The notes under the pieces were generated by a model that searched no databases, had not been told where the DNA came from, and was given only the letters and a program-made list of their open reading frames with translations. A stretch of DNA of 63,843 bases, counting the filler, from Reclinomonas americana ATCC 50394 (Eukaryota): the NCBI GenBank assembly GCA_048213135.1. It is 8 parts of 5 records of this genome, joined end to end, with 100 filler letters (N's around TTAATTAATTAA, not from the genome) between each part and the next. Parts side by side here need not be neighbours in the genome. Positions count along the whole stretch, not along the records: positions 18,941 to 40,175 come from PS015576.1; 7 more parts are not named here. One strand, 5' to 3'. A program made the position numbers and the translations under genes. Of this stretch, positions 4,533 through 37,335 are shown in pieces; the first letter of the stretch is position 1, and every line of letters begins with the position of its first letter.

Positions 4533-5176
4533 ATGAGCACTCGTGCAGCCTCACAGCAGTGGTGCGTTTGATTCTCCTCCACGCATGTATGCGTGTGTGC
4601 ATCCATCACGCACGCTCTCGTTTCTCTCTCTGTCTCTGCTGTGTCGTGTGAAGTTTTTGCTCGTGCACATGCACATGCGCTCCCCCCACTCACCCTCCCA
4701 CCACGCAGCGTCTTTTGCGCCGAGTGCAACAACCTGCTGCGCTTCTCACTCGGCAGAGCCGGCTTTGTCGAGTGCACCGTGTGTGGCCACGAGACACCGG
4801 TCGCTGGTGAGTCACTCTCACTCTCACACACTCTCTCCCGGCCTCTCAATCGCTGCTGGTGGAGAGCGCAGAGTTTGAGCGACTGGTGATTGTCACGCGC
4901 TCGGCCAAGAACGAGCTGCCGTACTGGGCGCGTGAGGACTATGGCGAGGTGACGGCCGAGCAGCGCAAGTCGGAGCTCGCGCAGGTGGACGAGCCGTGCC
5001 CCGAGTGCGGCAATCCCACGCTGCTCTACTGGACCATGCAGCTGCGCAGTGCTGATGAGGGCTCCACTGTCTTTTATCAGTGCCCCGCTTGCAAGTTGCG
5101 TTCGACGTCGCTTCTTCACTTCTCAGTCGCATGCTCACTCTCGCTATACAGTCACAAGTTTTCGCAAAACAACTGA
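4533..5176 (+). CDS. RPA12: RNA polymerase I subunit RPA12 (two zinc ribbons)
   Basis: N-terminal ribbon FCAECNNLL...CTVC and TFIIS-like C-terminal ribbon CPECGNPTLLYWTMQLRSADEGSTVFYQCPACNHKFSQNN*; three introns. Confidence 0.9.
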
Positions 5177-9300: not shown

Positions 9301-10201
9301 CCACTGCGACACATTCCGCAGGTGTTAGTCTACGTGACTCGGCACGACACAAGCGATCAGCCAGAAACACACGCAGACAAACCTCGCTCGCTCTTGCACA
9401 ACAGGTGAATGACTTCGGCGCCGCTGCGGCACACCATGAGCTGCGTCTTGGCCCAGATGAGCGCCTGCAGATGCGTGTTGTTCCAACCAAACGTCGCCGT
9501 CTGTCGCACACGAGTGCGGTACTGATCGAGGAAGCGCTCGTGCAGCTTGCCAGAGCGGTCGTCGCCACCCTGCACCGCATCTTTGGGGCTGTAGTCGGTC
9601 AACTTCGCAAAGCAGATCTTGCGCGGCGCAAAATGCGTGCGCAGCGCCTCGTCGATGCGTGCCGCCACCTTGCGCAGCATGGCATGATGCTCCAGAGTGG
9701 CCGCAGGCGCCTCAGGCACACGCCGCCGATGCCGATTGACTTGCAACAGCGCTGCAGCCTCCTCGGTCGACAGCGGGATCTCCACCGTGCTACATGCGCG
9801 GTGGTGTGAGACACGTGCGAACACACGCACACTTCTCTCTCTCTCTCTCTGTTACACAACTCGAAAGTAAAGTCGCGGATGAGCGGCACAAAGGCGGCAG
9901 TGGAGACGCGCGAGAAGGCAGAGTTGAGCTCATCGACAGCGCCGGCGTCGAAGCGCATGGAGGAGCTTCGTGGCCGCGACAGTGACGTCAGCGAGCCCGA
10001 GCTGCCTGCGCTCTTCATCACAGCGGCTGGAGGCAGAGGAGGAGGGCGGTGGTGGAGGTGCTGCACTGCGCCCAACACCGGCTCAGAGGCCGCTGGTTGC
10101 AGCAGTGCGTCGTCATCTCTCGCGGCAGTGACAGTGGCAGTGGGAGCAGCAGATGCCGCGCTGAGTGTCGCACTCAGGTCGTCCTGTGCGTGTGAGCTCA
10201 T
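6378..10201 (-). CDS. CDC123/D123-like (R2K clade) ATP-grasp protein with a long unknown C-terminal extension
   Basis: Motifs CFAKLTDYSPKDA, LLCKSER, IILREWVDLDPAFEFRAFIVDGEMVGLSQ and WYVVE|LNPF are typical of D123. Minus-strand exons appear to continue to the stop at 6378. Confidence 0.75.
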
Positions 10202-10571: not shown

Positions 10572-10725
10572 GTGAGAGTGTGCCCCCCCCCCCCGCCCTC
10601 TCTCTCTCTCTCNNNNNNNNNNNNNNNNNNNNNNNNNNNNNNNNNNNNNNNNNNNNTTAATTAATTAANNNNNNNNNNNNNNNNNNNNNNNNNNNNNNNN
10701 NNNNNNNNNNNNCACACACCCGCAG

Positions 10726-11653
10726 CATCGACGCTGGAAGCGTTGCGCTATATCCCACCCAGTGTCTACGTGGAGAAGAAGAAGGCTCTCGAGGCCGGCA
10801 TCGAGTTGCGTCGTCTCCTCTTTGCCGAGGGAAACAAACGTGTGTTGTTGACCTGACCGCCTACCGTGCGAGCAGATGGTCGTCAGCCTACTTCCGCGTT
10901 CCGGGGAGCATGAAGGTCGGCTGCCCCGAGTATCACGCCATGCTGGCCAAGGATGCGACCGAGGCTGGTGACTTCCCCGTCGGTGTGTTCTCGGTGGTGC
11001 ATGCAGTGTTGATCATCGTCATCGTCGTCATCATCATTCCCGCCTTTCTGCCGTCGCAGCTGCGTCGCACTTTATCCGCTGCTCTGCGGCCGACGCGTTT
11101 GCCGACATGTTGATCTCGTGGGCGTCGGTCGGCAAGCCAGAGGAGATTGACTTGTTTTTGGCGCGTGCAGTCATGCAGTTGCGCGCAGCAGGAGGAGATA
11201 ATGTCACTGCTTTGCTCTCAGTCCTCATTCGATTTGCAGGTCGTTTTGTGTCAGCAAGGACGCACCGGCATTGGCGCTGGTGAAGGAGTTTGTCGAGAAG
11301 AGCCACATGAGCGATGCACCGCTCATCCACTTTTCCGAGTTTCTGTGTCACGCGGTGGCCTCGGGCGACGCCCGTGCGTTCAACTTCCTGGTTTCGCAGT
11401 ACAGAAAGTCGCTGGATCGCGATCCGGCATTCAGTCAGCTGCTGCAGGAAATCACACGTGTGTGCTTCCCCGATTCACTCGAGGCTCGGCGAGCGGCACC
11501 GGTACGCTGCTTTTCCCCCTCGCTCCACTCTCGTCACACATCCTTGTCTCACTCGCCAGCGCTGCTTTGCAGTCACAAGACCTGTTTTCGACCATCTTGT
11601 CCAGTGTTATGGGTGGCGGCGCAGGTGGCCTCAGCGCTCTCTTCCCTCAATGA
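10726..11653 (+). CDS. GET4: GET4 (Golgi-to-ER traffic protein 4, tail-anchored protein pathway), 5' partial
   Basis: ALEAGIEWS, GCPEYHAMLA, ASHFIR, EEIDLFLARAVMQ, PLIHF, FNFLVSQYRKSLDRDP and a C-terminal DLFSTILSSVMGG match GET4 motifs. Confidence 0.85.
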
Positions 11654-11726
11654 GTCTCCTCCTCGGTATAATCGTGCAATTCAACAACAGTGCGTCTGCA
11701 TTAGCGTCTTTTCTCTCTACAATCCA

Positions 11727-14700
11727 TTATCGTACGGCGCGAGCCAGTGGCAGCATGCCGAGTGTCGGCTCTCGCGAGGCCGGCAGCGGCACCAGTCGAA
11801 CCAGGATGCTGCGGGTGGGACATGAGTGAGCGCGCGAGTGGAGACCTCCTCGGTGGATAGCGTGTGTCGGCTCACCGTTCTCCTACCGCCAGCGAAAAAT
11901 CGGTAATGCCATCGACAGAGACAGTGTGCGACTTGCGCGGCCCATCAAAGACGACTCGACGCAGGTGCGCCGCTTGCGTCGACGGCACAAACAGGCCTTG
12001 CACTCGTGGACAGCACTCCAGCGCAAAGCGCACTCGCAACGCCGACACCTCCACCACCACCTGTGCGCACGTTAGAGATGAGATGTGTGGATCGGGAATG
12101 AAATACACAGCTGCCGAACACGGCCAAACGCACCGCCACCTCCTCCACCGCCAGCCGACTGGAAATTGTCTGCAGATTCTGAGCATTCACCTTGCTGGTT
12201 GCCGCCTGCACAAGTTGTGCAACAGCCGTCGCGTGCGCGCAGAACTGCAGGGGTGCGAGGTGAGCGACTCGCGACGTGTGAGGTGCGCAATCTGGTTGGG
12301 GGGAGGTACCTCATCAACTGCAGCCTCATCCAAGTGCACGTCCAATGGGAGCGACAAGACGTCGCGTTTCAGTAAGCGGTGCACCGTCAGATCCATGTAG
12401 CTGCCAGCGACCAAGTCAGGGGTGAGTGAAAGAAAAGAGAGGTATGATGGCAGAGAGGAAACAAATACCGTCGCAGGGGCGCCACAAAGTGCGTGTGCGC
12501 CATGGTGTTCAGACCAACTGAGAGAAGAGCGACGTCAGGCACACAACGAATTCACACTCAAACATTCACAACGCAGCGCGCAACAGTGAATCCAGCGGTC
12601 GGTAGGTGTCGTGGCATCAAAGCGTGCCAAGGCGCACGGCGGAATCACCTTGGTGACATGAATACCGATGATCTACCACCGCGAACATCGATGTGAGCTC
12701 ACAGCTGGCCAGCACAATGTGCAACAATCATGGGACACACCATTGCCAGCGCCGGGTTCACCGTCATCGCAAACTCCATCTCGCGATGAATGGCACGCAG
12801 CAGCGTGTGCGCCGACTCCTGGTAAAAGGTGTGGTCCACCACCTCCAGGTCGAGCGGGAGTACCGGCATCTGTGTCCACCACGCGTAAGCAGTGAGTAAA
12901 TAATCATTAACCCCACTGTCGCGGTGGCGATACACACCTCCTCGTCACGGATCCTCAAACCGTAGCGACGACACAGTTCCGCCAGCCGCACCTGCTGCAG
13001 CGGAGCAATACTCGGTTGCACAGAGAGCGGACACAACTGCAAGCGCCGAGTCGGTGAGAACGTGTAGCGAACACGCAAAACGCGAAGAGAGACAGTGCCC
13101 ACGCCACCTTGCATCCAGTTTCCAACAGCCGCCGAGTGACCAACTGGTTAGCCACGAGAGCGCACTCGTCGATCGCGCGAGTTGCATCGAGCGTCTCGGC
13201 AGAGCGGAAACCGCGAGGCAAACCCTGCGCATCGAACGTCAACGCAATCTGCGGCACGTCAAACACTCGAGCATCTGCATGCACAACAAAAATCCAGACA
13301 ATCAGCAACCGTCGATGCAAGAGGAGTGGTGTGTGCAACAGACAGACCGCCTTGTTGCAAGCGGCGCAGATGGCGGGGAAGCATCAACTGGCAGAAGAGA
13401 CGAAGGAGCTCCGCCAGCTCGGCGGTGACGCCCGGAACATCGTCGTGCCCAGCCTGCAAGTTGCAGAGTGGGTCAGTCCAATAACTCACTGTCTCATGCA
13501 GGCTATCTCAAACACACAACGCACCATAACAAGCTGTGCTGCGTCGCGGGAAACCAACGATGTGGGTCGAATCACACACTGACCGAGCCACGGCGTATCG
13601 GGGCACACTTGCCCATCCAACGTCATGTACCACACAATGGAGAGGGTGAAGAAATCGCGATCAGTGCGCAGCGCGGCCATGTCCAGCACAGCCTGCGGCA
13701 GCATTTCTTGTTTCTACGCACACAAAGATGAGCACTGGGAATTCACACGCACACACATCTGCAAACACAAACCCTGTCGGACAGCTGGTACGTGCACACG
13801 CGCTTACGACACTCCAAATCCAACTCGGAGCCAGCCTCCACAAAGTGCGTAATGTCGGGCACATGAAGACCCTGCACAAACGTGTGTGAGCGAAAGACAG
13901 ACACTCAGGGAAGATATCTTTAGGCAAATGACGCAACAACTTCACACACGCCTGGGCGATCGGGCATCATGCGCAAGTGTACCGCTGCATCAAAGGGTGC
14001 CGCAAATGGCGGATTCTCAAACGCAAACAAGTGACCGCGCCCGCGCAAATCCAGACGACCCGCAAATTCTGGCAGCTGGTGGCGCATCACATGAGCGTCG
14101 TTGACAAGAGAACAATAAGAGGAAGCCAGAAGAGAACCTGTGCAGAAGAGGCAAGACGGCATGCTTCCGCGGTGAATGGCGGCAACGGCACTCGATTGGG
14201 TCCAGTCGGCAACGCACACGAAGCAAGCACCGCATTGAACTGCACCTCCGGATCCGACTGCGAGCCTGCACATTCATCGGCGCGATTCAGCAACGGCTTT
14301 CAGCGTGGCACAAAACAAACAATGTTACCACACACCAAACACTGCCACCAACTTGCCCCGTGGATGCTTTCTGTTCTCCGGCCAGTCCGCAATCTGCACT
14401 TGCACCATCGTGCTTGCCGTCCTGCGCAACAAAACAGTGAGCATCAGTGTGACGGCGACAAACAGCCGTCCGAGAAAACGCAACAGCGGCTGCTGCACGG
14501 CCCCATCCACTTCCACATCCACCAACGGCAACGAACGATCCGACGGCACCATCAACAACCCACTGCGCGACACGATCAGAGTCTGGAACGCAGCCAGCAA
14601 ACGAGGAGAAAAAGTCTCTGAGTCGCAACTCATGCGAGCGGAATCGCTGCATCACACCCACTGCAATCACTGGCGCCAGTCGGTTCACGGCCACCACGCG

Positions 14701-19962: not shown

Positions 19963-22900
19963 ATGCGCGGGGGCGCGGCCTTTGTGTGTCTCCTGCTTGC
20001 CACACTGGCGCTGCTTGCGGCGAGGTCAGTCCACCAGCACGCTCACCAGCACACACACACACTCCACGCACAGACAGCGACAGTGTGTGACGTGTGCGAC
20101 GCCACGTGGGCGATCTAAGAGAGAAAGAAATGAGAAAAAAACGACGCGTGCCACCACTCATTAACACTCACTCATTTGCACAGCAGCAGTGTGGCAGTCG
20201 TTGAAGCCGACAGCGATGCGGTGACTAGCGCAACACAACAACAGCCACCGCCGCCATCATTAGAGAAAGTGGAGCTTTCAGCAGTTATCGACAAGAATGA
20301 TGATCCATCGACAGCATCATCGTCGTCGTCGTCGTCGTCGTTTGATGACGCTGATGCCGATGGGCTGTTGCCATCGGCGCCTTCCTCGTCTGTAACCGAC
20401 GTTGTTGTCGATGTCGTGGAGAGGGGAGAGGAGGAAGAGGAGGAGAAGACCAAGGACGACGGTAATCAGAGTGAACTTGAGGCGGTATGTGTGTGCGTCG
20501 TGCGTCTTGTGTGTCTGAGTGTGTGCTCATTGTCGTCATTGGCGTCGTAGGCGAGTGTGGAGGTGGAGAAAGAAGAGGTCTCTTGTTTGTTTATTGATTC
20601 GGCGTGTGTCTTTTTTTCTTTTGAGTATTGACGACGATTTGTGTAGGTGGTGGTGGTGGGAGGGACCGCTTCCAGCGCAATATGGGCGGTGGTTGATCCC
20701 GAGACGATTGTCATTGGTGGTAGTAGTAGTGGTAGTGGAAATAGTGGTAATGCGAGCGACGGTGGCGACGCTGTGGAGGACGGTGCTCAGGGAACAACAG
20801 CAGCGGAATCCGAACATGGGTCCGAGGGCGGTGGTGCTGCGACGATCGACGAGGCGACTGGTGCGCCCAGTGGTGGAATCTCTACGCCAGTGTGTGTGCC
20901 AGGTGCGCGATTGGCGGTGGTGCGAATGTCGGTTGGACTCTGCGGACTGACGTGGTTTCATTTGGCACAGACACGGACGGAGCGTGTCCGATGACCGACG
21001 CCGAAATCGTGGCCTCGTTGACCGACACAGCTGGCGACGCCGTGACGGCCGCTGGCAGTGCTCTGGGTAGCGCGAATGGAGAAACTCTCGCCGCCGAAAT
21101 TGCGGCGCTTGTCGATGGGGAGAATAATGATGCGGAGGTTGCGGAGGGAGACAGCTCGTGGTTGAAGGAGTCGGCCGCTTCGTCTGCGCCTGTTGCGGAC
21201 GCTTCGGCGGCGACTGCTGCCGCCGCTAGCAATGTCGCCCCAACCGATGCTGCGGCTTCTGCCACCGGCGATGGTGCTCGTGAATCGTCGACGACCGCGG
21301 CCGCGGATGCAGGTGAAGGCGAGCAGAGCGATGCCAGCAGTGGCCCCGGGACACCGGAGGAGATTGACATTGCAAACGACACGCAAGACGGTCCCGGTGC
21401 GCCGAAGCTGTCGGCCGCCGAGATCCCTCTGCCACCCGTGCCGCCAAACGAGAACGAAACTCGGTACGTGGTTTTTTGGGAAGGTTTTGGTGCTCATCTG
21501 CCAACGATGACCACTCATTCTCCACCTCCAGTTTGTTCAACTACGCAGCGTCGTCGGTGGGCGCCAAGGTCCTTCGTGCGAGCGCCGAGACCAAGGTCGG
21601 TTCTCTCTCAGTGATATTGGGGAGTGTCGCTGGCACTGACACACATCGCGCGCAGGGCGCCTCTAAAATCCTCAACGATGACCAAGACCAGTACATGTTG
21701 ACGCCGTGCGATCTGCCGGACAAGCATGTGGACATTGAGTTGTCGGAGGAGGTGATGCCGAGCGATGTGGAGATGGCGAACTTTGAGTACTTTTCGTCCT
21801 CGGTGCGACAGTTTCGCATTCTCGGAAGCCAGCGGTGAGTACTGTGACAGCAGCGCCATGCCAGCCAGCTGATGCTGATTTCGCGCGCGCCGCAGGTATC
21901 CGTGTGATCAAGCACGTGGATGCCAGTGGCACATCCTCGGCACGTTCGAGGCAGAGAATTCGCGCAATGTGCAGCGCTTCTCCGTGCCGCAAGCAACCTC
22001 GATTTGGGCCAGGTTTGTGCGTGTGTGTGTGTGGACATTCTACTTTGCGATCTGTGGCACTCACACGCGCACGCGTAGGTATATCCGACTCCAGTTGCTG
22101 TCACACTACGGCAAGGAGCATTACTGCACGCTGACGACGTTTCGTGTGTACGGCTGGAATCTGATCGAGGATCTCAAGTCCGACATTAGTCAGGATGCCA
22201 CCCAGGCCGAGGTGCAGTGGCGCGCCGTTCGACCATGTTTTCTTTGAATACGTTGCTCATTTCGTATGTGTGTGTAACTGCGCAGCCGTCCATGTCGTCG
22301 GATCTCGATCCCATTATGGATGCCGCTGAGGCTCCGAGCGACATCAAGCGCATCTTGCAGCAGCTGGAGGAACTGCACACCGCGAATAGTGACATGCAGC
22401 ATCTGGAGGGTGTGCTGAAGCTTGCCACGGAGGTTACCGAGGCTGCCCCGGCCGCTGTCGCCGCCTCCACTGCAGTGGAGGAGGCGGAGCCTGTGGAAGA
22501 GGAGGTGGTGTTGCTGTCCACCGTGCCGACTGCCGTCGGTGTCGGAGCGCCTGTCCATGAGATCGCAGTCGTCGCCCCGGCTACTACAGCGACGACAGCC
22601 ACGGCCACGGCCACGGCCACGGCCACCGCTACGGACTCTGCAACAGCCACGCCGACTCCCACTGCTGCCCCTGCTGCTGAAGAGGTGAAGCCAGCGGCGG
22701 CGGAAGCTCCCGCTACTACGGACGCCGCTCCTGCCACACCGACCAGCGACGCACCAGCTTCGACTGACAGCGAGTCGGTGCCGCCGGCGACTGCTGTCGC
22801 TGCTGGAGCGGCACCGACTGTCGCGAAGCAATCAGCAAGTGAGACAACAGCGCCGACTCCCGCGAAGCAACCAGCAAGTGAGACAACAGCGCCGACTTCC

Positions 22901-25252
22901 GCGAAGCAACCAGCAAGTGAGACGACGGTACTGACTGCCGTCAAGCAAGTTGCAAGCGAGACACCGGCGCCGACGGCCACGAAGCAATCTGCAAGTGAGA
23001 CGACGACGACGTCGACTCCTGTCAAGCAATCTGCAAGTGTGGCAAAGGAGGCCGCGTCCGCAGAAACTGCACACGCCGCCGCCGCCGCTGCTGCCGCTGC
23101 TGCTGCTGTTGCCGTCGAAGACGGTGAGACCGCTGCGGAGACGACGACACCAGCCGAGGCTGTCGCGGAGCCAGCGGTGGAGACAGCGACTGTCGCTGCC
23201 GAGAAGTCTACTGCGGACGCACCTGGAGAGTCATCGGCGGCGGCGTCCTCTGCCGTCGAACCAGTTGCTTCAGAAGCCGACAACTCCACTGCAGCGCCTG
23301 TCGCGTCGCCTGCGGCTGATAGCAGCAGTGCGCCATCAGCAGTCGACGACCTGACGGCGGAGGTTGTTGTTGTGCCTCCTTCTAGCATGACGGAGAAGTC
23401 TGCCACTTCCACTGGTCGCCGAAGTGCGGCTGCGGCCGATTCGCCGTCGGCTACTGCTGCCGACGCGCGTGCAGATTCAGCGCCTCCGTCTATCGATGCT
23501 GCTAGCGTGGAGGAGACCCCTGCAGCGGCACCCGAGCTGCCATTGGCGACGGAGACAGTTGAGGCGACGGCACCTGTCGCCGTTCCTTCCGCTGCTCCCG
23601 CTGCCTCGGATTCCGATGCCAGTGAGGAACGCACGGAGGAAAAAGCGACCACCACCACAAGCACCGCCGCTACCGCTGCCGTGGTCGACGAGTCTGCCGC
23701 AGCGGCAAAGTCGGCAAGTGAGGAGGTGCATTCAGCGCAGGAGTCGACGACAACCACAACAGATGCGACTGCATCCTCTGCCGAGGAGCCATCAAGTGCC
23801 GACACGCCGACGGCGGAGTCATCAACTGCTGCGCCGGAGGGTTCTCAAGCTGTGCCGACGGCGAGTGCTGAGACGACGACAAGTGAGTCGCCGGCTACGC
23901 CTGTCGAGGCTCCGCAGGAGGCAACGGTGGCCGCCACGACGACTGCAGCACCTGCAACTCCAGCAGCTGCAGCTCCTGCCGCGTCAGCCACGCCCTCAGC
24001 GCCACCGGCACCGGAGAAGACGGCACAGTCAGCACCTTCATCATCTTCACCGCCGCCACCACCAGTCCCGCAGAGCCATGCGGCCGCCACCAACTCCACG
24101 TTGGTGCATGTGGTGGTGCCGCCGATGTACCACCCCCCCATGGCGGTGGCCGCGAGTGCACTTGGCACTCCACCGGCACTCACGCAAGGCTTGCCGCCGC
24201 TGGCTCGAGTCCTCGCGAAGCCTCCGTCAAGCAAGGACGGCGTGTTCAAGATGCTCACCGCCCGAGGTACGTCCCTTCATGCATCATGCGTTTTATTCTT
24301 GTGTGTCTCACTCCTCCTCCTCCCACAATGCGCAGTCAAGGCGCTGGAGACTCTCAGCGAGCACTACCTCAAGGCGCTGGTCGATCTCAACAAGGTCGTG
24401 CGCAGCTCGAGCCAGGCCAGCGTCGCTCGCGTGGTGGTCGACTTGACGAAGCGCATTCAGTCGCAAGAGAATAAGCTGGACGACCAGAAGCGCAGCCTCT
24501 CCAAGTCACACGATGCACTGAAATACCTTTCCCGCGTCCTGGATGCCTCGGAAGAGCGCTGGAAGCGTCGTGTGGAGGAGCTGCAAGTGCAGCAGCGCGT
24601 GTTTTTCGTGTGGACCATCCTGGCGTGTGTGGTGACGGCCGTGGCCGTCACACTCATCATCATGTTCCTCATGTCGTTTTCGTGGACGTTGCGTTGGTCA
24701 TTCATCACTTGTCTTCTCTTTGCCACATCCTCTCTCTCTCACTCACGCACATGTGTGTTCCATGCGCGCAGTCGCCGCAGGCTGGGTGTACTGACCGACG
24801 TGTCGCCACCGACACCCATCGATCTCGACTGCCTGCCGCCTGGTACGCCAGTGGACCACATTCCACTACCGTCGCCGGGACACCGCAGCGTGATTCCACG
24901 ATCGCCCAGCGCCGCCAGAAGTGCGACTCTCTCTTTTTCTCTCCATCATTTCCCTGCTGCTGACGGCATGTGCACAGTGCTGGCATACGCGCAGGATGAG
25001 TCGGCGAACGACGGCAGCAGTACGGGCGCCACCGACACGGGAACTCCCGCGCCGCTACCCTCCACCCAATTACAAAAGCTGGGTCACATGTCGGAGACCA
25101 CGTCTCCGCAGAACTCGCCGCGCGTTCGCTTCCCCGCATCGCCGGTCAACAACAACACGCTGCTGTCGCAGCTGGCGCAGCGACAAAAGGCTCAATTACT
25201 GACTGCCGGCTACGGCGCCAGTAGGCGGCGGCACAGCATGTCGACTTACTAG
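19963..25252 (+). CDS. Mid-SUN domain ER membrane protein (SLP1/SUCO-like)
   Basis: Signal peptide MRGGAAFVCLLLATLALLAA; SUN domain FNYAASSVGAKVL...KILNDDQDQYMLTPC...IELSEEV...ANFEYFSSSVRQF...YIRLQLLSHYGKEHYCTLTTFRVYG; Ala/Thr/Glu-rich linker; coiled coil; TM segment VFFVWTILACVVTAVAVTLIIMFL. Confidence 0.85.
22820..23040 (+). repeat. Coding 39-bp tandem repeat (KQ[P/S]ASETTAPT[P/S]A), about six copies
   Basis: Units of gcgaagcaaccagcaagtgagacaacagcgccgact are visible in the SUN-protein linker. Confidence 0.85.
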
Positions 25253-26568: not shown

Positions 26569-29500
26569 TCAGAGTTCCAGCGTAAACTGCCCACACGCCT
26601 CCCTCAGTGCGCGCATGACATCCAGCACCTCCTGCGAGGTCGGCCTGTCAGGGCGCATCGTCATGCATCGCATGCCGAGTTCAAACATCGGCTCAGCGAT
26701 GCGTGGCGTCCACTCTGCTCCGCCGTCCACCAGTTCCATGGGGCGTAGTGAGGCGGCACCGGAACGATCCCATGCCACGGACCAATCAACGACGGTAGAG
26801 ACGGGCTTGCCGGTGACCAGCTGCACCAGCACAATACCCGTGCTGTACACGTCGTGCTCTGGGTGCGGGCGACGCATGCGCATCGCCATTGGGTCCATGT
26901 AGTCCAGAGTGCCGGCGGCGGTCGTGGTCTACGAGGAGAGAGAAGGTGAGAATGAGAAAGAGAGAGAAGGAGAAGGACCCCAACACACTTTGCCATCTGC
27001 AATCGACCTCGCAATGCCAAAGTCACCGAGACATGGCTCGAAACGGTGATCGAGGAGCACATTGGAGGGCTTGATGTCGCGATGCACCACATTGTTCTGC
27101 GAGCGGAGGTGAGTGAGGTGAGGGACAAAGCATGAAAACACAACTGAAGGGTATGTGGAGAACGCATAATGCTGTCAGAGACAAAAACAACAATAGAGTG
27201 ACAAGGAGAGTAGAGAGATTATGAGCGCAAGCAGAAAGAGAGCAAGGGTGGAGAATGAGCGAGAATGAGAGAGACAGAGAAAAGAGTGCGGAGGTGGAGA
27301 ACACGAGAGACTGAGAGAAACAACACAAAAAGAGTGACAAGGAGAAAGAAAGAGAAGAGGCACACACAAAGAGCGAGTGTGAGGAGTGACCAAGAGGGAG
27401 AATGAGAGAGAAAAAAGTGCGGAGGTGGAGAACACGAGACTGAGAGAAATGACACAAAAAGAGTGACAAGGAGAGAAGAGAGATAATGAGTGCAGGCAGA
27501 AAGAGCGAGTATGAGGAGTGGGGAAGGACAGCACGAGAAACTGGGAAATACGAGACGAAGTGACAGAGCGAAGAAGAGAAGAGTGGAGAACGCAAAGATA
27601 GAGCAAGGGCGACGGAAAGGGAGAATGGGATGGAGGATTGCATCTACATCGCACAAACCTTGTGCAGGAATGCCACAGCCTCGGCCAGTCCGAGACCAAT
27701 TTGCACACGCTGCACGACCGTGAGTGGTGCACGACCGGCGCGTGGCAGCAGCAACAGATCCTCCAGGTTGGGAACTCTGTGTGCTTTCACAATGAGGTGA
27801 TGATGGATAGAAGGAAGAGAGATGGACACGCACTGCAGGGCCTTGTACACGAGACAGCGTGCCTTGTCGTCGCCCACCGAGTAGCCGACAAGAGGCACAA
27901 TGCGACGATCACGCAGGCGTCCGAGGGTAGCGACCTGTGAGGATGGGGAAGATGGATGAGGGGAGAGAGAAGAAACAGGAGAGAAGGAGAGACACAGACC
28001 TCGCTCTCAAACGACTCCATCGTCCATGGTGCGTCGGGGTCGAGCACCTTGATGGCCACATGCATCTCGCGAAGCAATGCGATGAAGACGGCACCCTGGC
28101 CACCCTCGCCAACCTTGAGGCGTGGGGAGAATGAATTGGTGGCGTGCACGATCTCGGGCCACTCGAAACGCTGCACGGCAGTGTCGACTGTGGACGGCAT
28201 GATGGGAAGTGAGATATTGGTGAGAATGAAGGACGTTGAACATCGATATGAAGAAAGAAAGGGAGAGGCAAACAACAGACCTTGGGCGAGGAGAAGATCC
28301 TGTCGCAGCTGGGAGACGAGTTGATCCTTTTCTTGCAGCTGTGTGGTGAGGTCGTCCTTCTCGCGCAGTGCTGCAGTGAGCTGAGCCTGCAGTTGGCAGT
28401 GAGCTTGCTGCCATTCTGTCACAGTCCGTTGAAGTTGGGAATTCTGCTCCTCCTTCTCGGCCTTGCCTTGCTGCAGCTCCGTGATGGCTTGTCGCAGCTG
28501 GGCATTCCTTTCGAGCTCCTCAACCTTGCTTCGTTCAAACTCTACATTCGCTCGCTGCAGATCGGCGACGACATGTTCGTGCTCTTGCCGCTGCCGCTCC
28601 CACTCCAGCTGCTGCAGCTCTCGCTCCTGCTGTGCTGCTTGAAGATCGCGATGGAGTTGTGCATTGAGTGCATAAACACCGGCGAGCTGGCGTGCCACGG
28701 TGGGAGCATCAGCCGCCTGCACAGCAATAAGATACGGCGTGAGCGGGCGAAAGCGACAAGGAATGAACGCAGGAGTGACAAGGACACTTGAAGATTACTC
28801 GTCGTCGCACCTGGCGTGCTGGCGGTGCGTCTGTGAAGGGATAACAAGGCGGAAAGTGAACGCGAGGAGTATGAAGAACACATCGTCGTACCCGACAAAA
28901 TATCACACCTGCTGGCGGAGGAGATCGCATCTGTTGTTGTTGTTGTTGTTGACGGGGTAGTGGAGGCCGCGCCGCGAGGCGGTCAAGCAACTCGGCTACC
29001 TGCTGCTTTCTCGCGTCCCGTGCCATTTGCGCTGCTGTCTTGCCCAGCTTGTTGACCATCGGCACAAGATCGGGACAACGAGTGGTGAGGAGTCGCACAA
29101 CGGCTTTGTGGCCTCCCCAGGCAGCATAGTGCAGTGCAGTGGACTGCGAATTGATGGCGCGGTCATTGGAGACCGCCCGCACCATCTCCGGCGGACATCG
29201 TCGCTCATCTGCCAGCAACCACTCCACCACGTGAAGATACCCATAGGTGGCAGCCGCCGTCAGTGGCGAGTAGCCACCGTCGTCGACCATTTGTGCGAGT
29301 CGTGGCCCGACGCCACTCTCCTCCCACAAATACTCCAACACAGAGAGACGACCTTGTGCAGCGGCCCAGAGAAATGCCGAGCCGCCCTCATACATCTCCT
29401 CTCTCTCCAGCAGAGAGTGTGCGCCCTCACGCGCCACCAACTCGCACAGTGCTTTCACATTGCCCTCCATTGCTAAAACCCACGCTTTCTTCCGAAGAGC

Positions 29501-29589
29501 ACTGCCACCAAAGAGGCAAAAGCAGAAGCGCGAGTGAGAGTGAGAAACAGAGAGTGAATGCCAACTGACATAATCACCGCACACCTCAT
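26569..29589 (-). CDS. Ankyrin array copy 1: ANK repeats - coiled coil - RLK/Pelle (IRAK-like) protein kinase
   Basis: 5-nt first exon ATGAG, ANK exon, Q/E-rich coiled coil, then kinase FEWPEIVHATNSFSPRLKVGEGGQGAVF...VAIK...HRDIKPSNVLLD...DFGIAR...GTLDYMDP...DVYSTGIVLVQLVTGK...DRPT. Confidence 0.9.
27200..27600. repeat. Intronic ~130-bp degenerate tandem repeat (about three copies)
   Basis: gtgcggaggtggagaacacgaga...actgagagaaa...acacaaaaagagtgacaaggag recurs inside a kinase intron. Confidence 0.7.
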
Positions 29590-30085
29590 TTTCTTTGATC
29601 CCGAGACTGGAGGGAAATAACAGTAACGCTCTCTCTCTCCCTCTCTCACACACACGAACACACTGTGCCGTCTCTTTGCACACTCAGCTTCGTCTTCGTC
29701 TTTTTTCCGAGCGTCCTGCTCCACGACGGACAGTGATTGCATAGTGGCGACGTTGTGTGTCGCAACTCGCGAGTGGAGTCTGGAACAGCTTCATCGCATG
29801 ATACACACAATCAAGCTATGATGGCAAACTTGGGGGTTGGTGATACGTTCAAGTCGGCAGCACGCAATCAAGATATCGATCCGCTTCGCAGTGCGCGTCA
29901 AACAAACAAAACACTTCATTCACCACATTCCAATAATGCGATAAAAGCCCACAAATCCCTTGCCGACAATGACCTATTAAATGCATCCACCGCTGCATCT
30001 CTTGGCCGTGTCAGTCCTTCCGCAATTCCTTGAATCATTTCACATACGTTCGCCTCAACGCTTCCGCGAATTGTCGGACTTGGGC

Positions 30086-31222
30086 TTACTCCTTCTCATG
30101 CAGCTGCGCCACAAGATCGTCCCTGTCACGCAAGGCAGCAGTCAATTGAGCCTGCAGTTGACCATGAGCTCGCTGCCACTCCGCGTTGGCTTGCTGAAGC
30201 TGGGCAACGACGTCCTCGTATTCCCTACGTTGTCGATCCCACTCCCGTTGCTGCTGTTCTCGCTCCTGCAGTGCGGCGGCAAGATCGCGCTGGAGTTGAG
30301 CAAGGAGTGCGTCCTTCTCGGCCAGTTGGCGTGCCATTGCCGACTCATCGATAACCGCCTGTACAGAAGGCAAATGTGACACGAGAGTGCGAGGGAAACA
30401 TGAAACGCACGCGAAAACGAGTAGGAACATAAGCAGATGCAGAATGGCTCTCTCCGTCTCACCTGTCGCGCCAGCTCTGCATGTTCCGCAACGTCACACC
30501 AAGACACACATGGCGGAGTGTAAGCAACAACAGAGTGAATCACACAACGCGCTAACAGAAAGATGAGACAGCACCTGAAGGTGCAGGAGTCTGTGGCTGT
30601 TGCGCAGCGAGGCGATCAAGCAACTCGGCCACTTGCTGCTTGCCCTTGTCACGTGCCGCCTCAGCCGCTGTCTTGCCCGCCTTGTCGACCATCGGAACGA
30701 GGTTGGGAAAGCGAGTGGCGAGGAGGCGCACAATGTCTTCGTGGCCTTGCCGAGCAGCCTCATGCAGCGCAGTGGACTGTGGAGTCACAGCACCATCATT
30801 GGAGACCGCCCGCACCATCTCCGCCGGACATCGTCGCTCATCTGCGAGCAGCCACTCCACTGCGCAAAGACGCCCACAGTAGGCAGCCGTCATTAGCGGA
30901 GTCCAACCATAGTCGTCAACCTGCAGTGCGAGTTGTGGTCCCACGCCACTCTCCTCCCACAAGTACTCCAACACGGGAACGTGGTCCTCTTGAGCGGCAC
31001 AGAGATACGCAGAGCAGCCGGCATCAAGCATCTCCGCTCTCTTCAGCAGAGTGTGTGCGCCCTCACGCGCCACCAACTCGCGCAGTGCCTCCACGTCGCC
31101 ATCAATTGCCATCTCCCATGCTTTCCTCAGACGAAAACTGTCGCACAAAGAGGCAAAAGCAGAAGCGCGAGTGAGAGTGAGAGAAAGAGAATGCCACCTG
31201 ACAGCATCACAGCATACCTCAT
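30086..31222 (-). CDS. Ankyrin array copy 2: ANK repeats - short coiled coil, no catalytic domain
   Basis: Same exon layout as copy 1 (ATGAG exon, ANK exon, 14-nt micro-exon ELARQ, coiled-coil exon), ending ...LVAQLHEKE* at 30086. Confidence 0.75.
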
Positions 31223-31728
31223 TTTCTTCAATCTCGAGGCGGAAGAGAAACGACACCAACTCTCTCTCTCTCTCTTTCACACACTGCGCCTTCCCTTCAC
31301 ACACGCTCTGCCGTTTCGATCGCCGTTTCCCCGACTGTTGTTGCGAGCGTCCTGGACGGACGACGTCGCGCTTGCATCGCTCGGTTGTCATAAAAAAAAA
31401 ACACTTCATTTACCACATTCCGATAATGCGACAAACGCCGACAAATCCCTTGCCGACAATGACCTTGGCACACCAACAATATATAAACACATTGTACTTC
31501 TCCAACAGTCATCTAGATCTTCCCTTTCAGGAGGCAAAGCCAAAAAAACGCATACTATATATATATGCATCCCCGCCTTCTCCAAACAAAACACTTCATT
31601 CACTTTGTGAATGAAACCCACTGCACATTCACTGCTCATCTGTGCGAGAGAAAACACAAACGTGGAGTGTGAACACGCACGCACAACGTGGCAGCAGTTG
31701 ACGAGAGAGTGCACACCTGCAGTTGTTC

Positions 31729-32360
31729 CTATTGCTCCTCGGCAAGTCGATCGAGCAACTCGGCCACTTTGTTCTCGTCACTCTCGCGTGCCAGCTGCGC
31801 CGCCGTCTTGCCTTTTTTGTTGACCATGGGAATGAGGTCGGGAAATCGAGTGGCGAGGAGTCGCACAATGGCTTTGCGGCCCATCTTTGCAGCATAATGC
31901 ATTGCGGTGGACTGCTTAGACGAAGCACGGTCATTGGTGACCGCCCGCACCATCTCCGGCGAACATCGTCGCTCATCGGCAAGCAACCACTCCACGACTT
32001 GCAGACGGTCTCCGGAAGCAGCGGCCATCAGTGGCGTCCATCCTTCGCCGTTGAGCAGTTGTGCGAGTTGAGGTCCGACGCCGCTCTCCTCCCACAAGTA
32101 CTCCAACACTGGCAAATGGCCCCGCCAACAGGCACGGAGAAATGCCGAGCTGCCATGCCTATCAATCTCCTCTCTCATAAGCAGAGTCTCGGCGCCCTCA
32201 TACGCCACCAACTCGCGCAGTGCCGCCACATCGCCCTCATCCGCCATCTCCCATGCTCGCTTCCGAGGGTCACTGCCACCAAAGAGGCAAACGCAGAAGC
32301 GCGAGTGAGAGTGAGAAACAGAGAGTGAACGCCAACTGACATAATCACAGCACACCTCAT
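31729..32360 (-). CDS. Ankyrin array copy 3: ANK-only (premature TAG; possible decoy or pseudogene)
   Basis: The ANK exon is intact, but a TAG at 31729-31731 lies four codons before the conserved cag|gt donor, and no coiled-coil exon follows. Confidence 0.7.
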
Positions 32361-32742
32361 TTTCTTTGATCCCGAGGCGGAAGGGAAACGACACCAACTC
32401 TCTCTCTCACACACACACACGAACACACTGCACCGTCTCTTAGCCTTCGTCTTCGTCTTTTTTCCGAGTGTCCTGATTCATGACGGACAGTGATTGTGTG
32501 CGACGTCGTGTTCTCGACTGATCTGTGGAGTCTGAAATGCTTCATCACACGGTACGCAGTCAACTTTTGCTTCCTGACATGCTCTTGCGAAGAGGCGACA
32601 GAGTTTTGTTGCGATACCACGCGTAAGAGATCAGTGCACTTCGAGAAGGCGATCAACTCTCTTGTTAACATATTCCAAGGCTGCCTGCAATGCAGTGCAC
32701 TCATCACGTGACTTCCTGTGGCTCATTTCACTTGCTTTCACC

Positions 32743-32830
32743 TCACAGTTCCAACGTAAACTGCCCACACGCCTCGTGCAGGGCGCATGGTCCTGCAGCG
32801 CATGCCGAGCTTGACATGGGTTCGGCGACT
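32743..32830 (-). pseudogene. Relic of the RLK/Pelle kinase C-terminus
   Basis: Reads VAEPM../KLGMRCRTMRP../HEACGQFTLEL*, matching copy 1 IAEPMFELGMRCMTMRP...REACGQFTLEL* (26569-26700) with a frameshift and a deletion. Confidence 0.85.
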
Positions 32831-32856
32831 AATCCACACCGGCGGTCCAGCTCGCA

Positions 32857-35800
32857 CTATGACGACCCAGCCACCGCTCCTACTCCTCCTTGCACTGGCG
32901 TCGCCTCACACAATCGCCTCAGCTCGTCGAGCACGTATATTGCCGACACGCGAGTTGCTTGAGGCCTCTGCACCACACGCAATCAATGAACAATCCTCCA
33001 TTCCCTTGCACCCCATCTGTCTCCCATGCGCAACCCAGCACTGCCGAATCAGACTGCGAATGTCCTCTGGCACGGCTGCCCGCACTTCATCGTCGTCCAG
33101 GTCGCCCGGCAAAACGCCGTCATGCATTCGACGCATGATGGCTGGTAGCGCCACTCCACTGAATGGCTCGCGGCGAGTTGCAATTAACCAAAGCAGGGAA
33201 CCGAGTCCATAAACATCCGCTCTTTCATCATACTGCGAGTGGTCAAAGGAGTGAGTCCACCTATTTTGAGAGGGACCGAGAGAAGGCTAATCACTCACCT
33301 GCTGTTCCAACATGGCCTCTGGCGCAGCATACGCCGCTGTTCCGTGATTCGACTGCATCTTGCCGAGAGTGCCGTGAATCTTGGCCTCCCCAAAGTCACA
33401 CACCTTGGCCACGAGTCGATCCTCGCTGATGAGAATGTCTGCGGACATTTAGGGAGGAGGTAAGGGGAGAGGGCGAAATGCAATCGGGGAATGAGAGCGG
33501 ATAAAGAAGCTTGATTGACAACGAAGAGACTCTTCCTGCCCCGCTGAGTCACTCTCGTCGTCATCACAGAAAACGACAGCGGGAAAAGCTCGCCGAATAA
33601 GTCGAAGGGAATATCCACCTTCTTCGCTTGACGGAATCTGAGTTATCTCTCTCGCTCACTCACATCACTTTCTCTCCATCTTCAGTCACCCTCCGTGACA
33701 CGCAACTCTGCGGCTTGAGATCCCGATGCACCACTCGACGAGAGTGCATGTACACCACCGCCGATGCCACTTGCAAGAGCAGGCTGAGCAGATGCTGTGT
33801 CGTCGTGCGCTCATCCTTCACCAGGTCGTGCAGCGTCTCGGCGTTTCCTTCCTCGCCTTCTTGACCGACATACTCGAGAACGAGAGCGAGGCCGTTACGG
33901 TCGTCGTCGCAAACGGCCACCAGTTTCACAATGTGCGGATGGCTGTGCGCGCAGGTACATGAGTGACGGTGATGAGCATTCAAGTGAGATTACGAAGAAT
34001 GCACGCAACTCGAGCTGCATAAGCAGTGAATGTTCGTTCTCGAAGCAATCTCGAATGCGCCTCCAGTCCACTGACTGCGAAACGCGTGCTTGCTGCCTGA
34101 CAAAGTAGCGCTTGTACGCCACGGTCTGCGAGTTGCCACCGAGTCGGAGAGTGGCGTGGAAGACGGCATTCTGGGCTGAAGTATAGACATATATCAGACG
34201 AGCCTAGACTACTGCCAACAAAAGCGAAACCCTCACCAATGGCGAGCTGTCTTGTCGATAGTTCGAGTTCCGAGAAAGGCACAACAGGCGCACGAATGGC
34301 GAATCTCGCTGCTCTCTCCGTCACCAACTCGGCCGTCACGTTGATACGACACACATCTGTGCACGAGGAGAATGAGATGAGAGAACGAAGAAATCAATGG
34401 CAAGTGCAGTCGCAACTCTCGTATGCTTGAAATAGCAGACGAATGCTCTCGTGCGATCCATCGGGGAACAGCGTGTGGAGCGAATCACGCACCAGCCGCA
34501 TGACGCTCACGTACTCTGCGTCCTCGAGTGCAGATAGACGGGCCAGGTGAGACACGCGATGGCGCACATCCCTCAAGCTCTCCACGGCTCGAATCTACGA
34601 ATGAAAAAATCAAGTGAGAACACAATAGCACGCAGACATGTGCACAACATGAAAAAAGAAAGCACGAACAAGGAGAGCAGAAACGCAGAGTGTAGGACTC
34701 CTCATCCTCCGTCCTCCTTCTTTCGTTCCCCTCTAATGCTGCCCTCCCTCCTTCACTCCTCTGTCTTCTTGTGCTCTCCCCTCCTTCCCTCACACCTTGG
34801 CGTCGTCAGCAAGCAAGCGCACTGCCAGTCGATCTTCGTTTGTGACGGGATCCAGACGAATGCCACTCTTCAGCAGATCCTCATCCCGACAGGCAGCACG
34901 AGGAATAAATGTGATATACAACAGCAGAGTGCTCAGCAGTGACACATCCATGCCCGTGGTCACTCCACTCCCCTTGAATGTGCGAATGGCTTCGCGGTTG
35001 GAAGGGAACAACTCGACGGAGCGCATGCGAATGTTGCCGCGCTTGTCCAGCGTCATTCGGCAGTATCTGTGAGGCAGAATGAGTGGAGATGGCAACAGCG
35101 CAGCTTGACGACATGTCGAGCACCTTGGTGGTGGAGATGGCAGGCAGAGTTGCTCAATGTCGAATTCGCCAGGGAAGAAGTCAGTGACGAGTTGGTGCAG
35201 GAGGGAGCCGAGAGCCAGTGGAATGATTTCGTGCACGACTTCGGTGAGCATCAAGATTGGACGACGGTCACTGTGCATGCAAGAGAGAAGTGAGAAAGAA
35301 GGTCGTGCACACGAGGCAAAGAAGCTGTCCAATAGGAACCTGAGAAAGTCCATGTGGAAGAGGGCGCGCAGCTGGCATTCCATCTCATCCACCCTCCGTC
35401 GGAGCTGATCGCGTTCTTTGGCAAGATTGGCAAGCTGCGCACGAAGAGCATTCCTCTCGACAGTGGTGACGTTTGCGACACGCTCAGCGTCAGTGAGAGC
35501 TTGTTGGAGCTGACTGCGACCGGCCGTGAGCGACTCAACAACAGCTTGGGTGGTAGCCAGTTCTTCGGTGCGCGAATGATATTCGGCAGAGATGGCCGCG
35601 ACGGTGGCTTGAGATGCGGCAAAGTACTCGGCGAGTTGGTCACGCTCCGCAGTGACATTCGCTGTGGAACCGTAAAGTGAGGAACGAAAGACGGATCACG
35701 AGCACACAACAAAATCAGCCTGGCGAAACGAACCGAGGGTACGATCTTTCTCAGCCAGCTGGGTGGAGAGTCGATCCCTCTCGGACTGCAACTGGGCATT

Positions 35801-36870
35801 CTTCTGCTGCTCTTCGGCGTTGGCTCGCTGCAGCTGAGCGACAATGTCCTCGTGCTTTCGTCGCTGCCGGTCCCACTCCCGCTGTTGCTGCTCCCGCTCC
35901 TGTTGTGCTGCGGCAAGGTCGTGTTGGAGTTGGGCGAGGAGTGCGTCCTTGTCGGCGAGCTGGCGTGCGACGGTGGGATCATCATCAACCGACTGCAATT
36001 TACGAGAGTGCGAGGGAGACACGGAACGGATGTGAGAAGTGAGTTTCACGAGCAACAAGAAGCAGAGAGTGGCACTCTCCGTCTCACCTGGCGTGCTGGC
36101 ACTGCATCATATTCGCCAGAAACGACACACAAGGACAAACACAGGCGTGGAGCGTGAGCACGAACACAATATGCCAATAGACATAGAGGTCATACCTGCA
36201 GGAGGCGGGGATCGCGGCTGCTGTTGTTGTTGTCGGCGTGGTGGTGCTGGTTGCGCAGCAAGGCGATCGAGCAAGTCGGCCACTTTTGGATTGTAGGTGT
36301 CGCGTGCCCACTGAGCCGCCGTGTTGCCCTCCTTGTTGACCATGGGAATGAGGTCGGGAAAGCGAGTGGCGAGGAGTCGCACAACGGCTTCGTGGCCATA
36401 TGCGGCAGCCCAATGCAGTGCAGTGGACTGTGGATATTCGGCACTGTCATTGGTGACCGCCTGCACCATCTCCGGCGGACATCGTCGCTCATCGGCAAGC
36501 AACCACTCCACCACTTGCAGATGCCCTCCGCCGGCGGCCACCATCAGCGGCGTCCAGCCATAGAAGTCGACCATTTGTGCGAGTTGTGGCCCGACACCAC
36601 TCTCCTCCCACAAATACTCCAACACAGAGAGATGGCCTTTGTAAGCGGCACAGTAAAATGCCGACTGGCGACGATCATCCATCTCCTCTCTCTTCAGCAG
36701 AGAGTGTGCGCCCTCACGCGCCACCAACTCGCGCAGTGCATTCACATCGCCATCCAGCGCCATCTCGAATGCTTTCTTGCGACGAGCACTGCCACCAAAG
36801 AGGCAAAAGCAGATGCGCGAGTGAGAGTGAGCGAGAGAATGCAACCTGACAACATCACAGCGCACCTCAT
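32857..36870 (-). CDS. Ankyrin array copy 4: ANK repeats - long coiled coil - putative HEPN RNase domain - TKL-like protein kinase
   Basis: ANK and coiled-coil exons are paralogous to copies 1-2. A helical domain follows with MDVSLLSTLL and IRAVESLRDVRHRVSHL, then a kinase VAYK...HPHIVKL...HRDLKPQNILI...KVCDFG...GTAAYAAPE...ADVYGLGSLLWLIATRREPF...CW. The exons join in frame with GT-AG introns. Confidence 0.8.
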
Positions 36871-37335
36871 TTTCTTTGAGAGAAAACAACAGCGTGCTCT
36901 CTCTCTCTCGCACACACACTCTCCTTCACACACACACGCCCTCTCTGCCTCGCGCACTGCCTTGATCTGCTTGCCTTTTTTTCTGCGTGTCCTCTTGCTT
37001 GGCGGACAGTGATTGCAATGCGATGTCGGAATTCTCTTGCCACGATTGCACGACAGATCCATGAACTTCTGCAACGCTCCACCACATGTACTGTCTTCCT
37101 TCGCCACTGCTGCTTTACAGCGCGAAGTCGCACCCATTTTCCTCATCACTTCTGCTCTGCTTCTCCTCCCTCCCCCTTTCCCCTTCCTCCCCCCTCTCCC
37201 CCTTCCCTCACCACCACCAATCGATTATACTTGAACAATAAAAAACAAACAAAAAACAACACTCCCATCTACGCACACTCTCCTCTCCCCCAACCCACCC
37301 CCACCCGAGCATGCACAAACACCCATCCCTCCTCC

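Follow-up and report, generated by a model that had tools for sequence, protein, structure and literature searches.

Proteins of the HEPN class are described as four-helix up-down bundles with an insert between helices 2 and 3, in which an Rx4-6H motif lies at the end of helix 3, the Arg being followed mostly by Asn, Asp or His, and in which helix 2 carries a second acidic residue, typically in the form Ex3[KR] (PMC3710099). Dimerisation is required for HEPN activity, and Ire1 and RNase L each unite a nuclease with a kinase in one machine; kinase-coupled activation is established for Las1, Ire1 and RNase L, and the catalytic R-H-x3-H of yeast Las1 consists of Arg129, His130 and His134 (PMC10942766). 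DZIP3-type HEPN domains have been reported in fusion with ankyrin and other adaptor domains, with expansions in Nematostella, oyster and the protist Capsaspora (PMC3710099, Table 1), and those of pearl oyster form tandem arrays in which Rx4-6H is kept in 194 of 202 cases (PMC9646362). Here we analyzed a 63,843-nucleotide (nt) stretch of DNA, filler included, from Reclinomonas americana ATCC 50394 (GCA_048213135.1), hereafter the window, and focused on a minus-strand gene in its PS015576.1 part, gene A, which encodes an ankyrin head, a long helical/coiled-coil region, an orphan domain of about 200 amino acids (aa), termed domain X, and a protein kinase. The initial annotation had read domain X as a HEPN RNase and the whole as RNase L-like. 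Our results revealed a single R-H-x3-H motif inside domain X, and we lean toward a HEPN fold for this domain as a probable, although far from secure, assignment.

Gene A extends over 36763..32857 on the minus strand, from an ATG at 36763-36761 to a stop at 32859-32857. Its 13 exons, whose joins were predicted from the genomic sequence, are separated by 12 introns of 57-268 nt that are all of the GT..AG type, and together they form a single open frame of 909 aa. The pieces of the gene were first seen as minus-strand open reading frames (ORFs) within 36925-32857 with ankyrin, coiled-coil-like and kinase character. GC content is 0.55-0.71 in the exons (0.635 at third codon positions of the coding sequence) and 0.44-0.56 in the introns, and 11 of the 12 acceptors read CAG. 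The 14-nt micro-exon at 36101-36088 (minus strand) is required for the reading frame to continue from the ankyrin head into the coiled coil; it recurs in paralogue C of the array described below, bordered by CAG upstream and GTGAGACGG downstream, and the corresponding acceptor of paralogue D differs. Two of the 12 introns, 35339-35271 (69 nt) and 35123-35067 (57 nt), are in frame and stop-free and could be coding, but they were favored as true introns because of their pyrimidine-rich 3' ends. As a separate observation, four of the 12 donors of gene A are GTTGCG instead of GTRAGT, and most of its introns are very short (57-95 nt).

The placement of all four modules in one gene, as originally proposed, is supported by the coding frames themselves. 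An unbroken ORF (34790-35695) runs from the coiled coil, of which it holds the second half, into the first half of domain X, and the exons of the kinase N-lobe have no in-frame Met upstream of VAYK, so that a separate kinase gene would miss its first strands, which argues against such a gene. In addition, the kinase subdomains were restored exactly over the predicted splice junctions (HRDLKPQ/N, LMQLD/HPHIV and EQQ/YDERAD, where the slash marks the junction), and alignments of the spliced kinase with unrelated kinases pass exon junctions 9/10, 10/11 and 11/12 without a gap, for example that with comparison protein P0126 (80.4 bits). We consider it very probable that ankyrin head, coiled coil, domain X and kinase belong to a single gene.

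The first exon (36763-36196, minus strand) encodes the ankyrin-repeat head (aa 1-189), which matched the Pfam profiles Ank_2 (3.7e-20), Ank (6.3e-17) and Ank_4 (6.1e-16) and comprises at most 4-5 repeats. A profile of this head and those of its three tandem paralogues matched 433 of 8000 candidates; the 120 matches listed were generic ankyrin proteins with 23-44% identity, and PF18738, PF18731 and PF15112 were present on none of these 120. With the same profile, a metagenome scan produced 248 pattern matches, none of which was confirmed. Exons 3 and 4 (35992-35734 and 35661-35340, minus strand) encode the long helical/coiled-coil region (aa ~195-387), which was recognized by composition, structure prediction and weak Pfam matches: aa 201-380 contain no Pro and one Gly, AlphaFold2 predicted long helices at residues 2-60 and 66-117 of the folded piece, with block-mean values of the predicted local distance difference test (pLDDT) of 68-88 over residues 21-90, and the Pfam matches were weak and only to coiled-coil families (E 3e-4 to 0.007).

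Exons 8-13 (34356-32857, minus strand) encode a linker and the protein kinase (aa ~587-909), identified by the Pkinase profile of Pfam on three exon ORFs (2.2e-13, 4e-07 and 0.0011) and by its motifs. All the motifs listed in the initial annotation are present, namely VAYK with Lys648, HRDLKPQN at 754-761 (split by a junction), DFG at 775-777 and APE at 799-801. Nine of 125 local comparison proteins matched the spliced kinase (E 1.7e-51 to 5.7e-16), and a search with a kinase exon gave five weak matches in 743 candidates, the best being a Phytophthora kinase with 37% identity. The Gly-loop sequence is set by the choice among alternative splice sites of intron 8 (34170..34237, minus strand). 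Its strongest donor, GTGAGG, which defines a 61-nt intron, leads to the loop I-A-Q-N-A-V with no Gly, whereas the donor GTTTCG (55-nt intron) gives IGEAQNAVF, with one Gly-loop glycine restored, and the donor GTTGGC combined with a second acceptor (49-nt intron) gives IGEGFAFNAVF, with two restored. The GxGxxG loop of gene A would contain zero, one or two Gly according to which of these three in-frame donor/acceptor pairs is used; the degenerate Gly loop noted before applies to the strongest donor and not to the other two. All three variants scored alike against other kinases (summed 578.5, 578.4 and 578.4), and these alignments cannot choose among them because they stop short of the N-lobe. 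The kinase of gene A may well be active. We also observed that read-through past the GTGAGG donor yields an in-frame string resembling a Gly loop.

Domain X (aa 388-586) is encoded by exons 5-7 (35270-35124, 35066-34796 and 34594-34417; span 34417..35270, minus strand) and had no family match or homologue in the searches given below. It contains RHRVSH (R-H-x3-H, aa 538-543; 34564-34547, minus strand), a candidate RNase catalytic motif, within the stretch IRAVESLRDVRHRVSHL (34594-34544, minus strand), and further upstream MDVSLLSTLL (aa 476-485; 34951-34922, minus strand), in which Asp477 is the candidate helix-2 acidic residue; both strings had been named in the initial annotation, and RHRVSH lies at the coordinates stated there. 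R[NDH]xxxH occurs once in the 909-aa model, inside domain X, and RHRVSH has the form described for HEPN domains, Rx4-6H with a polar residue after the Arg. Six-frame ORFs totalling 65295 residues contained the same pattern 42 times. The predicted structure was obtained for P0001, a read-through translation of the domain X region that includes two introns and in which the letter X was placed at four stops. In this low-confidence model, RHRVSH lies near the C-terminal end of a predicted helix (227-244 of P0001, by DSSP), followed by a break and then a helix at 250-267, and Asp477, 61 residues before Arg538, stands at the start of another predicted helix (109-125, also of low confidence). The position of the motif at a predicted helix end, before a short loop and the next helix, together with the His after the Arg, is consistent with the HEPN description as far as such a model can be read. 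The motif jointly with D..LL 40-110 aa upstream appeared in 0.5% of shuffles, a value that has to be read with the second motif having been picked after the sequence was seen.

The one independent line pointing to HEPN was obtained when the 59-aa motif exon (exon 7) served as query in a language-model search (recognition 2397). The named neighbours included DUF4559 (0.87, 175 of 256 features), HEPN_DZIP3 (0.85, 177 of 256 features, with 10% of the cluster members carrying the family), a second HEPN_DZIP3 cluster (0.76, with 55% of the members carrying the family) and a HEPN_Swt1 cluster (0.75), all below 0.9, the level under which such matches are leads only. DUF4559 corresponds to the Cxorf38 family. 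These neighbours are rare families of the same HEPN branch that the initial annotation had named, and as leads they suggest, rather than establish, a HEPN relationship.

Several results weigh against the HEPN assignment. Pfam revealed no HEPN family on the exon pieces or on P0001, and neither PF18738 (HEPN_DZIP3) nor PF18731 (Swt1-like HEPN) matched either of them at E<=10; PADLOC and NCBIfam each returned no family for three of three queries. HMMER with the 158-aa N-terminal half of domain X retrieved none of 1,835,955,588 representatives at E<=0.001, and pattern matches to domain X in a metagenome scan (214) and in viral and prokaryote contig scans (8 and 125, respectively) all went unconfirmed. 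The language-model search with the N-terminal half gave no usable match (recognition 1328); for the motif exon, the top two clusters (0.91) were viral proteins without a family, and among its ten best matches with a family no more than three agreed in family or clan with the top one of these ten, whose family was flagged as 'probably wrong'. AlphaFold2 without alignment returned a mean pLDDT of 39.8 for the domain X region, with none of 284 residues at 70 or above, and a second model without alignment placed domain X below 50. Furthermore, R[NDH]xxxH arose by chance in 7.2% of 20000 domain shuffles and in 26% of whole-protein shuffles, Asp477 upstream departs from the Ex3[KR] pattern, and the motif helix depends on a predicted join of exons 6 and 7.

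Other searches with domain X gave a similar picture of an orphan sequence. PHROGs showed three families of unknown function, for the motif exon only (E 0.04-0.28), and a word-indexed protein search with the 301-aa ORF among longer proteins found none in 8000 candidates. By tblastn, the motif exon had no match in phages and one in plasmids, at E=10 and within an aconitase, and the best local phmmer score of spliced domain X against the 125 comparison proteins was 6.1 bits. Sequence searches of the PDB remained at chance level both for P0001 (BEND3, E 0.37; thiazole synthase, E 0.38) and for the motif exon (designed helical repeat proteins and the PTK2B FAT domain, E 0.15-1.2). The only Pfam match to any part of domain X was DUF7062 over its first part (35067-35269, including the putative 57-nt intron), which at E 0.068-0.18 was judged to be chance; a literature search found no paper on this family. 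The extra domain of about 200 aa is present as initially annotated, but its helical character depends on models with pLDDT below 50; likewise, the HEPN claim retains the motif and the language-model lead, but not the support of a profile, a homologue or a fold. The HEPN reading is neither proven nor refuted.

Four minus-strand paralogues stand in tandem at 26572-36763, with gene A as the first; they share an ankyrin head of about 170 aa with 70-71% aa identity (tblastn E 1.6e-63 to 3.7e-70 for the heads of paralogues B, C and D). Paralogue B consists of the ankyrin head only (32247-31735), paralogue C of ankyrin head and coiled coil (31112-30089), and in paralogue D (29476-26572; Pkinase 2e-09 and 2.5e-06) the head and coiled coil are joined to another kinase, whose Gly loop is canonical; all three lie on the minus strand. 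Compared with paralogue D, gene A has the same head and coiled coil, adds domain X and carries a kinase that is unrelated at the tblastn level. No copy of domain X was detected by tblastn in paralogues B, C and D. The ratio of nonsynonymous to synonymous substitution rates (dN/dS) for the ankyrin heads in the array is 0.44-0.67. One head with swapped tails in tandem matches the pattern reported for lineage-specific defence-type families, including DZIP3-type HEPN (PMC3710099, PMC9646362). Beside the coding regions, about 110 nt upstream of each paralogue start are more conserved than the coding sequence (36764-36900, 32248-32380, 31113-31250 and 29477-29610, minus strand). These stretches contain an upstream ATG, then CAG/GT.. 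and, about 60 nt on, ..GGCAG/, which suggests an intron in the 5' untranslated region together with a short out-of-frame upstream ORF.

Among the described systems, DZIP3/hRUL138-like (PF18738), Cxorf38 and Swt1-like HEPN proteins are among the closest to gene A, sharing with it Rx4H in a helical domain (a predicted one in gene A), fusion to ankyrin and lineage-specific tandem arrays. On the other hand, the Pfam models of the DZIP3-like HEPN families fail on domain X, Asn is the typical residue after the Arg in them (PMC9646362) whereas domain X has His, and fusion to a kinase or to a long coiled coil is not among the fusions found described in the accessible parts of PMC3710099 and PMC9646362. 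Nor did we find a DZIP3/Swt1-type HEPN fused to a protein kinase behind a coiled coil in the literature searched, as far as its text was accessible. If domain X is a HEPN, its placement after a coiled coil and N-terminal to a kinase would be a new arrangement for DZIP3/Swt1-like domains.

The comparison with RNase L and Ire1 is of a different kind. If domain X is a HEPN, gene A would be alike in being a nuclease-kinase machine with an ankyrin module, as in RNase L, and a dimer-dependent RNase (PMC10942766). However, no KEN (Ribonuc_2-5A) match was found by Pfam on any exon ORF of gene A, the protein ends about 35 aa past the kinase C-lobe, and the candidate HEPN stands before the kinase, not after it. 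Because the KEN domain is missing and the order is reversed, gene A falls outside the KEN/RNase L family, and the earlier label 'RNase L-like' can be kept as a functional analogy only. Moreover, the long coiled coil of gene A would provide the dimer contact in place of back-to-back kinase dimers, and, set against RNase L, its kinase keeps Lys, HRD, DFG and APE and its head has 4-5 ankyrin repeats at most. By this analogy, the likeness to RNase L would be one of independent assembly, not of homologous architecture. Las1-Grc3 offers a further parallel, with the same R-H-x3-H spacing and, in Las1, a HEPN dimer with an adjoining CC domain (PMC10942766); in contrast with gene A, Las1 is a conserved rRNA-processing enzyme, and the polynucleotide kinase that activates it is a protein of its own, whereas gene A has a protein kinase in the same chain; Las1 has no Pfam match in gene A. 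Ankyrin-repeat protein kinases, which combine ankyrin with a TKL-type kinase and to which paralogue D belongs, are alike in having ankyrin repeats and a Ser/Thr-type kinase in one chain.

The explanation that we consider best, and hold tentatively as a whole, is as follows. The product of gene A would be a cytoplasmic multidomain protein composed of the ankyrin head, a coiled coil of ~190 aa, domain X as a helical and fast-evolving part, and a kinase of the Ser/Thr type (TKL-like). Domain X would belong, as a very divergent member, with the HEPN domains of the DZIP3/Cxorf38/Swt1 kind and would have kept the Rx4H dyad (Arg538, His539 and His543) and the upstream Asp477. The coiled coil would keep two chains in register, and the two HEPN domains might then build a composite metal-independent RNase site, with the ankyrin head binding a trigger or partner and the adjoining kinase either tuning the RNase, by nucleotide binding or autophosphorylation, or sending a parallel signal. 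The tandem family, with one ankyrin/coiled-coil head and various tails, would fit lineage-specific sensor-effectors of a stress or defence type. Within this scheme, the specific proposal that domain X is a dimer-activated RNase is, in our opinion, rather doubtful. Attractive as this architecture is, its key element rests on a motif and one lead.

A competing possibility, also doubtful in our view although it deserves serious consideration, is that domain X is an orphan non-catalytic helical spacer or a regulatory/docking domain, that its R-H-x3-H arose by chance and that the protein is a TKL-like kinase scaffolded by ankyrin repeats and a coiled coil, as other ankyrin-repeat kinases are, with phosphorylation as its only output. 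The missing HEPN profile, homologue and fold and the frequency of the motif in both sets of shuffles speak for this explanation; the kinase has kept all its catalytic residues and, with the alternative donors of intron 8, most of its Gly loop as well, and paralogue D joins the same head straight to a kinase without any domain X. It accounts less readily for the presence of three rare, mutually related HEPN-type families among the neighbours of the motif exon, for a motif placed, in the low-confidence model, as in HEPN domains and followed after its Arg by an allowed polar residue, or for the fact that this exact R-H-x3-H form is catalytic in Las1. A different helical fold ahead of a kinase or pseudokinase, either a four-helix-bundle executioner of the MLKL/HeLo-like kind or a BEN-like domain, appears highly improbable. 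Domain X does lie immediately ahead of a kinase that, with the strongest donor, has a degenerate Gly loop, and residues 4-96 of P0001 gave a weak phmmer match to the BEND3 BEN domain (7v9i_A, E 0.37), with the weak DUF7062 match (E 0.068) over the same stretch. However, E 0.37 among 177,635 sequences is the chance expectation, the BEN alignment crosses the likely 57-nt intron, BEN, MLKL, HeLo and Helo_like_N were all absent from the Pfam results at E<=10, and the language-model neighbours listed included no such family.

The gene model may also differ from the product made in the cell, gene A being a decaying duplicate or being spliced in another way; for instance, with intron 7 retained, the protein of ankyrin head, coiled coil and domain X would stop at 34393-34391 and the kinase would not be co-translated. 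The exon joins are predictions, a 14-nt micro-exon is required, N runs are numerous in the assembly, paralogues B and C seem to be truncated, and the dN/dS of the ankyrin heads corresponds to relaxed constraint. We nevertheless regard this explanation as improbable, in view of the points on the other side: 13 exons and 12 GT..AG introns lead to one open 909-aa frame, the kinase subdomains are exact over the junctions and gap-free against other kinases, the kinase N-lobe lacks a start codon, and paralogue C has the same micro-exon with the same splice signals.

The neighbours of gene A in the window are ordinary eukaryotic genes, with Pfam matches on nine of the 140 ORFs scanned. These include a TFIIS-type Zn ribbon (4811-5173, plus strand), D123 (8926-9324, minus strand), GET4 (11202-11822, plus strand) and, from Pfam and the ORF scan, exons of a SUN-domain gene (Sad1_UNC) and, after them, an open frame of 1020 aa with a high content of Ala, Thr, Ser and Pro (21368-25249, plus strand). 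Pieces of an NPC1-like gene, with a sterol-sensing domain and the NPC1 middle luminal domain, are located at 42836-46135 (minus strand, Pfam). Rfam and tRNA scans of the whole window gave no match. The N runs of the window often consist of 44 N, 12 bases and 44 N (e.g., 3051-3150, 10613-10712 and 40176-40275), and larger gaps comprise 267-925 N.

If domain X is not a HEPN, the locus would simply hold ankyrin-headed kinases of an ordinary lineage-specific family, with domain X as an orphan insert. If it is an active HEPN RNase, gene A would provide a second, convergent coupling of a HEPN nuclease to a kinase and ankyrin repeats, outside the KEN family and with a coiled coil as the dimeriser. 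In that case, DZIP3/Swt1-type HEPN effectors, which have been described mainly in animals and Capsaspora, would reach another eukaryotic microbe and a kinase fusion. In its most far-reaching form, which we consider unlikely, gene A would be an independently assembled machine in the style of Ire1 and RNase L, in which ankyrin head and coiled coil dimerise a DZIP3/Swt1-type HEPN RNase ahead of a competent TKL-type kinase, and the tandem cassette family, with its alternative effectors (kinase alone, RNase plus kinase, or none), would constitute an innate-immunity-like locus of a protist in which effectors are swapped.

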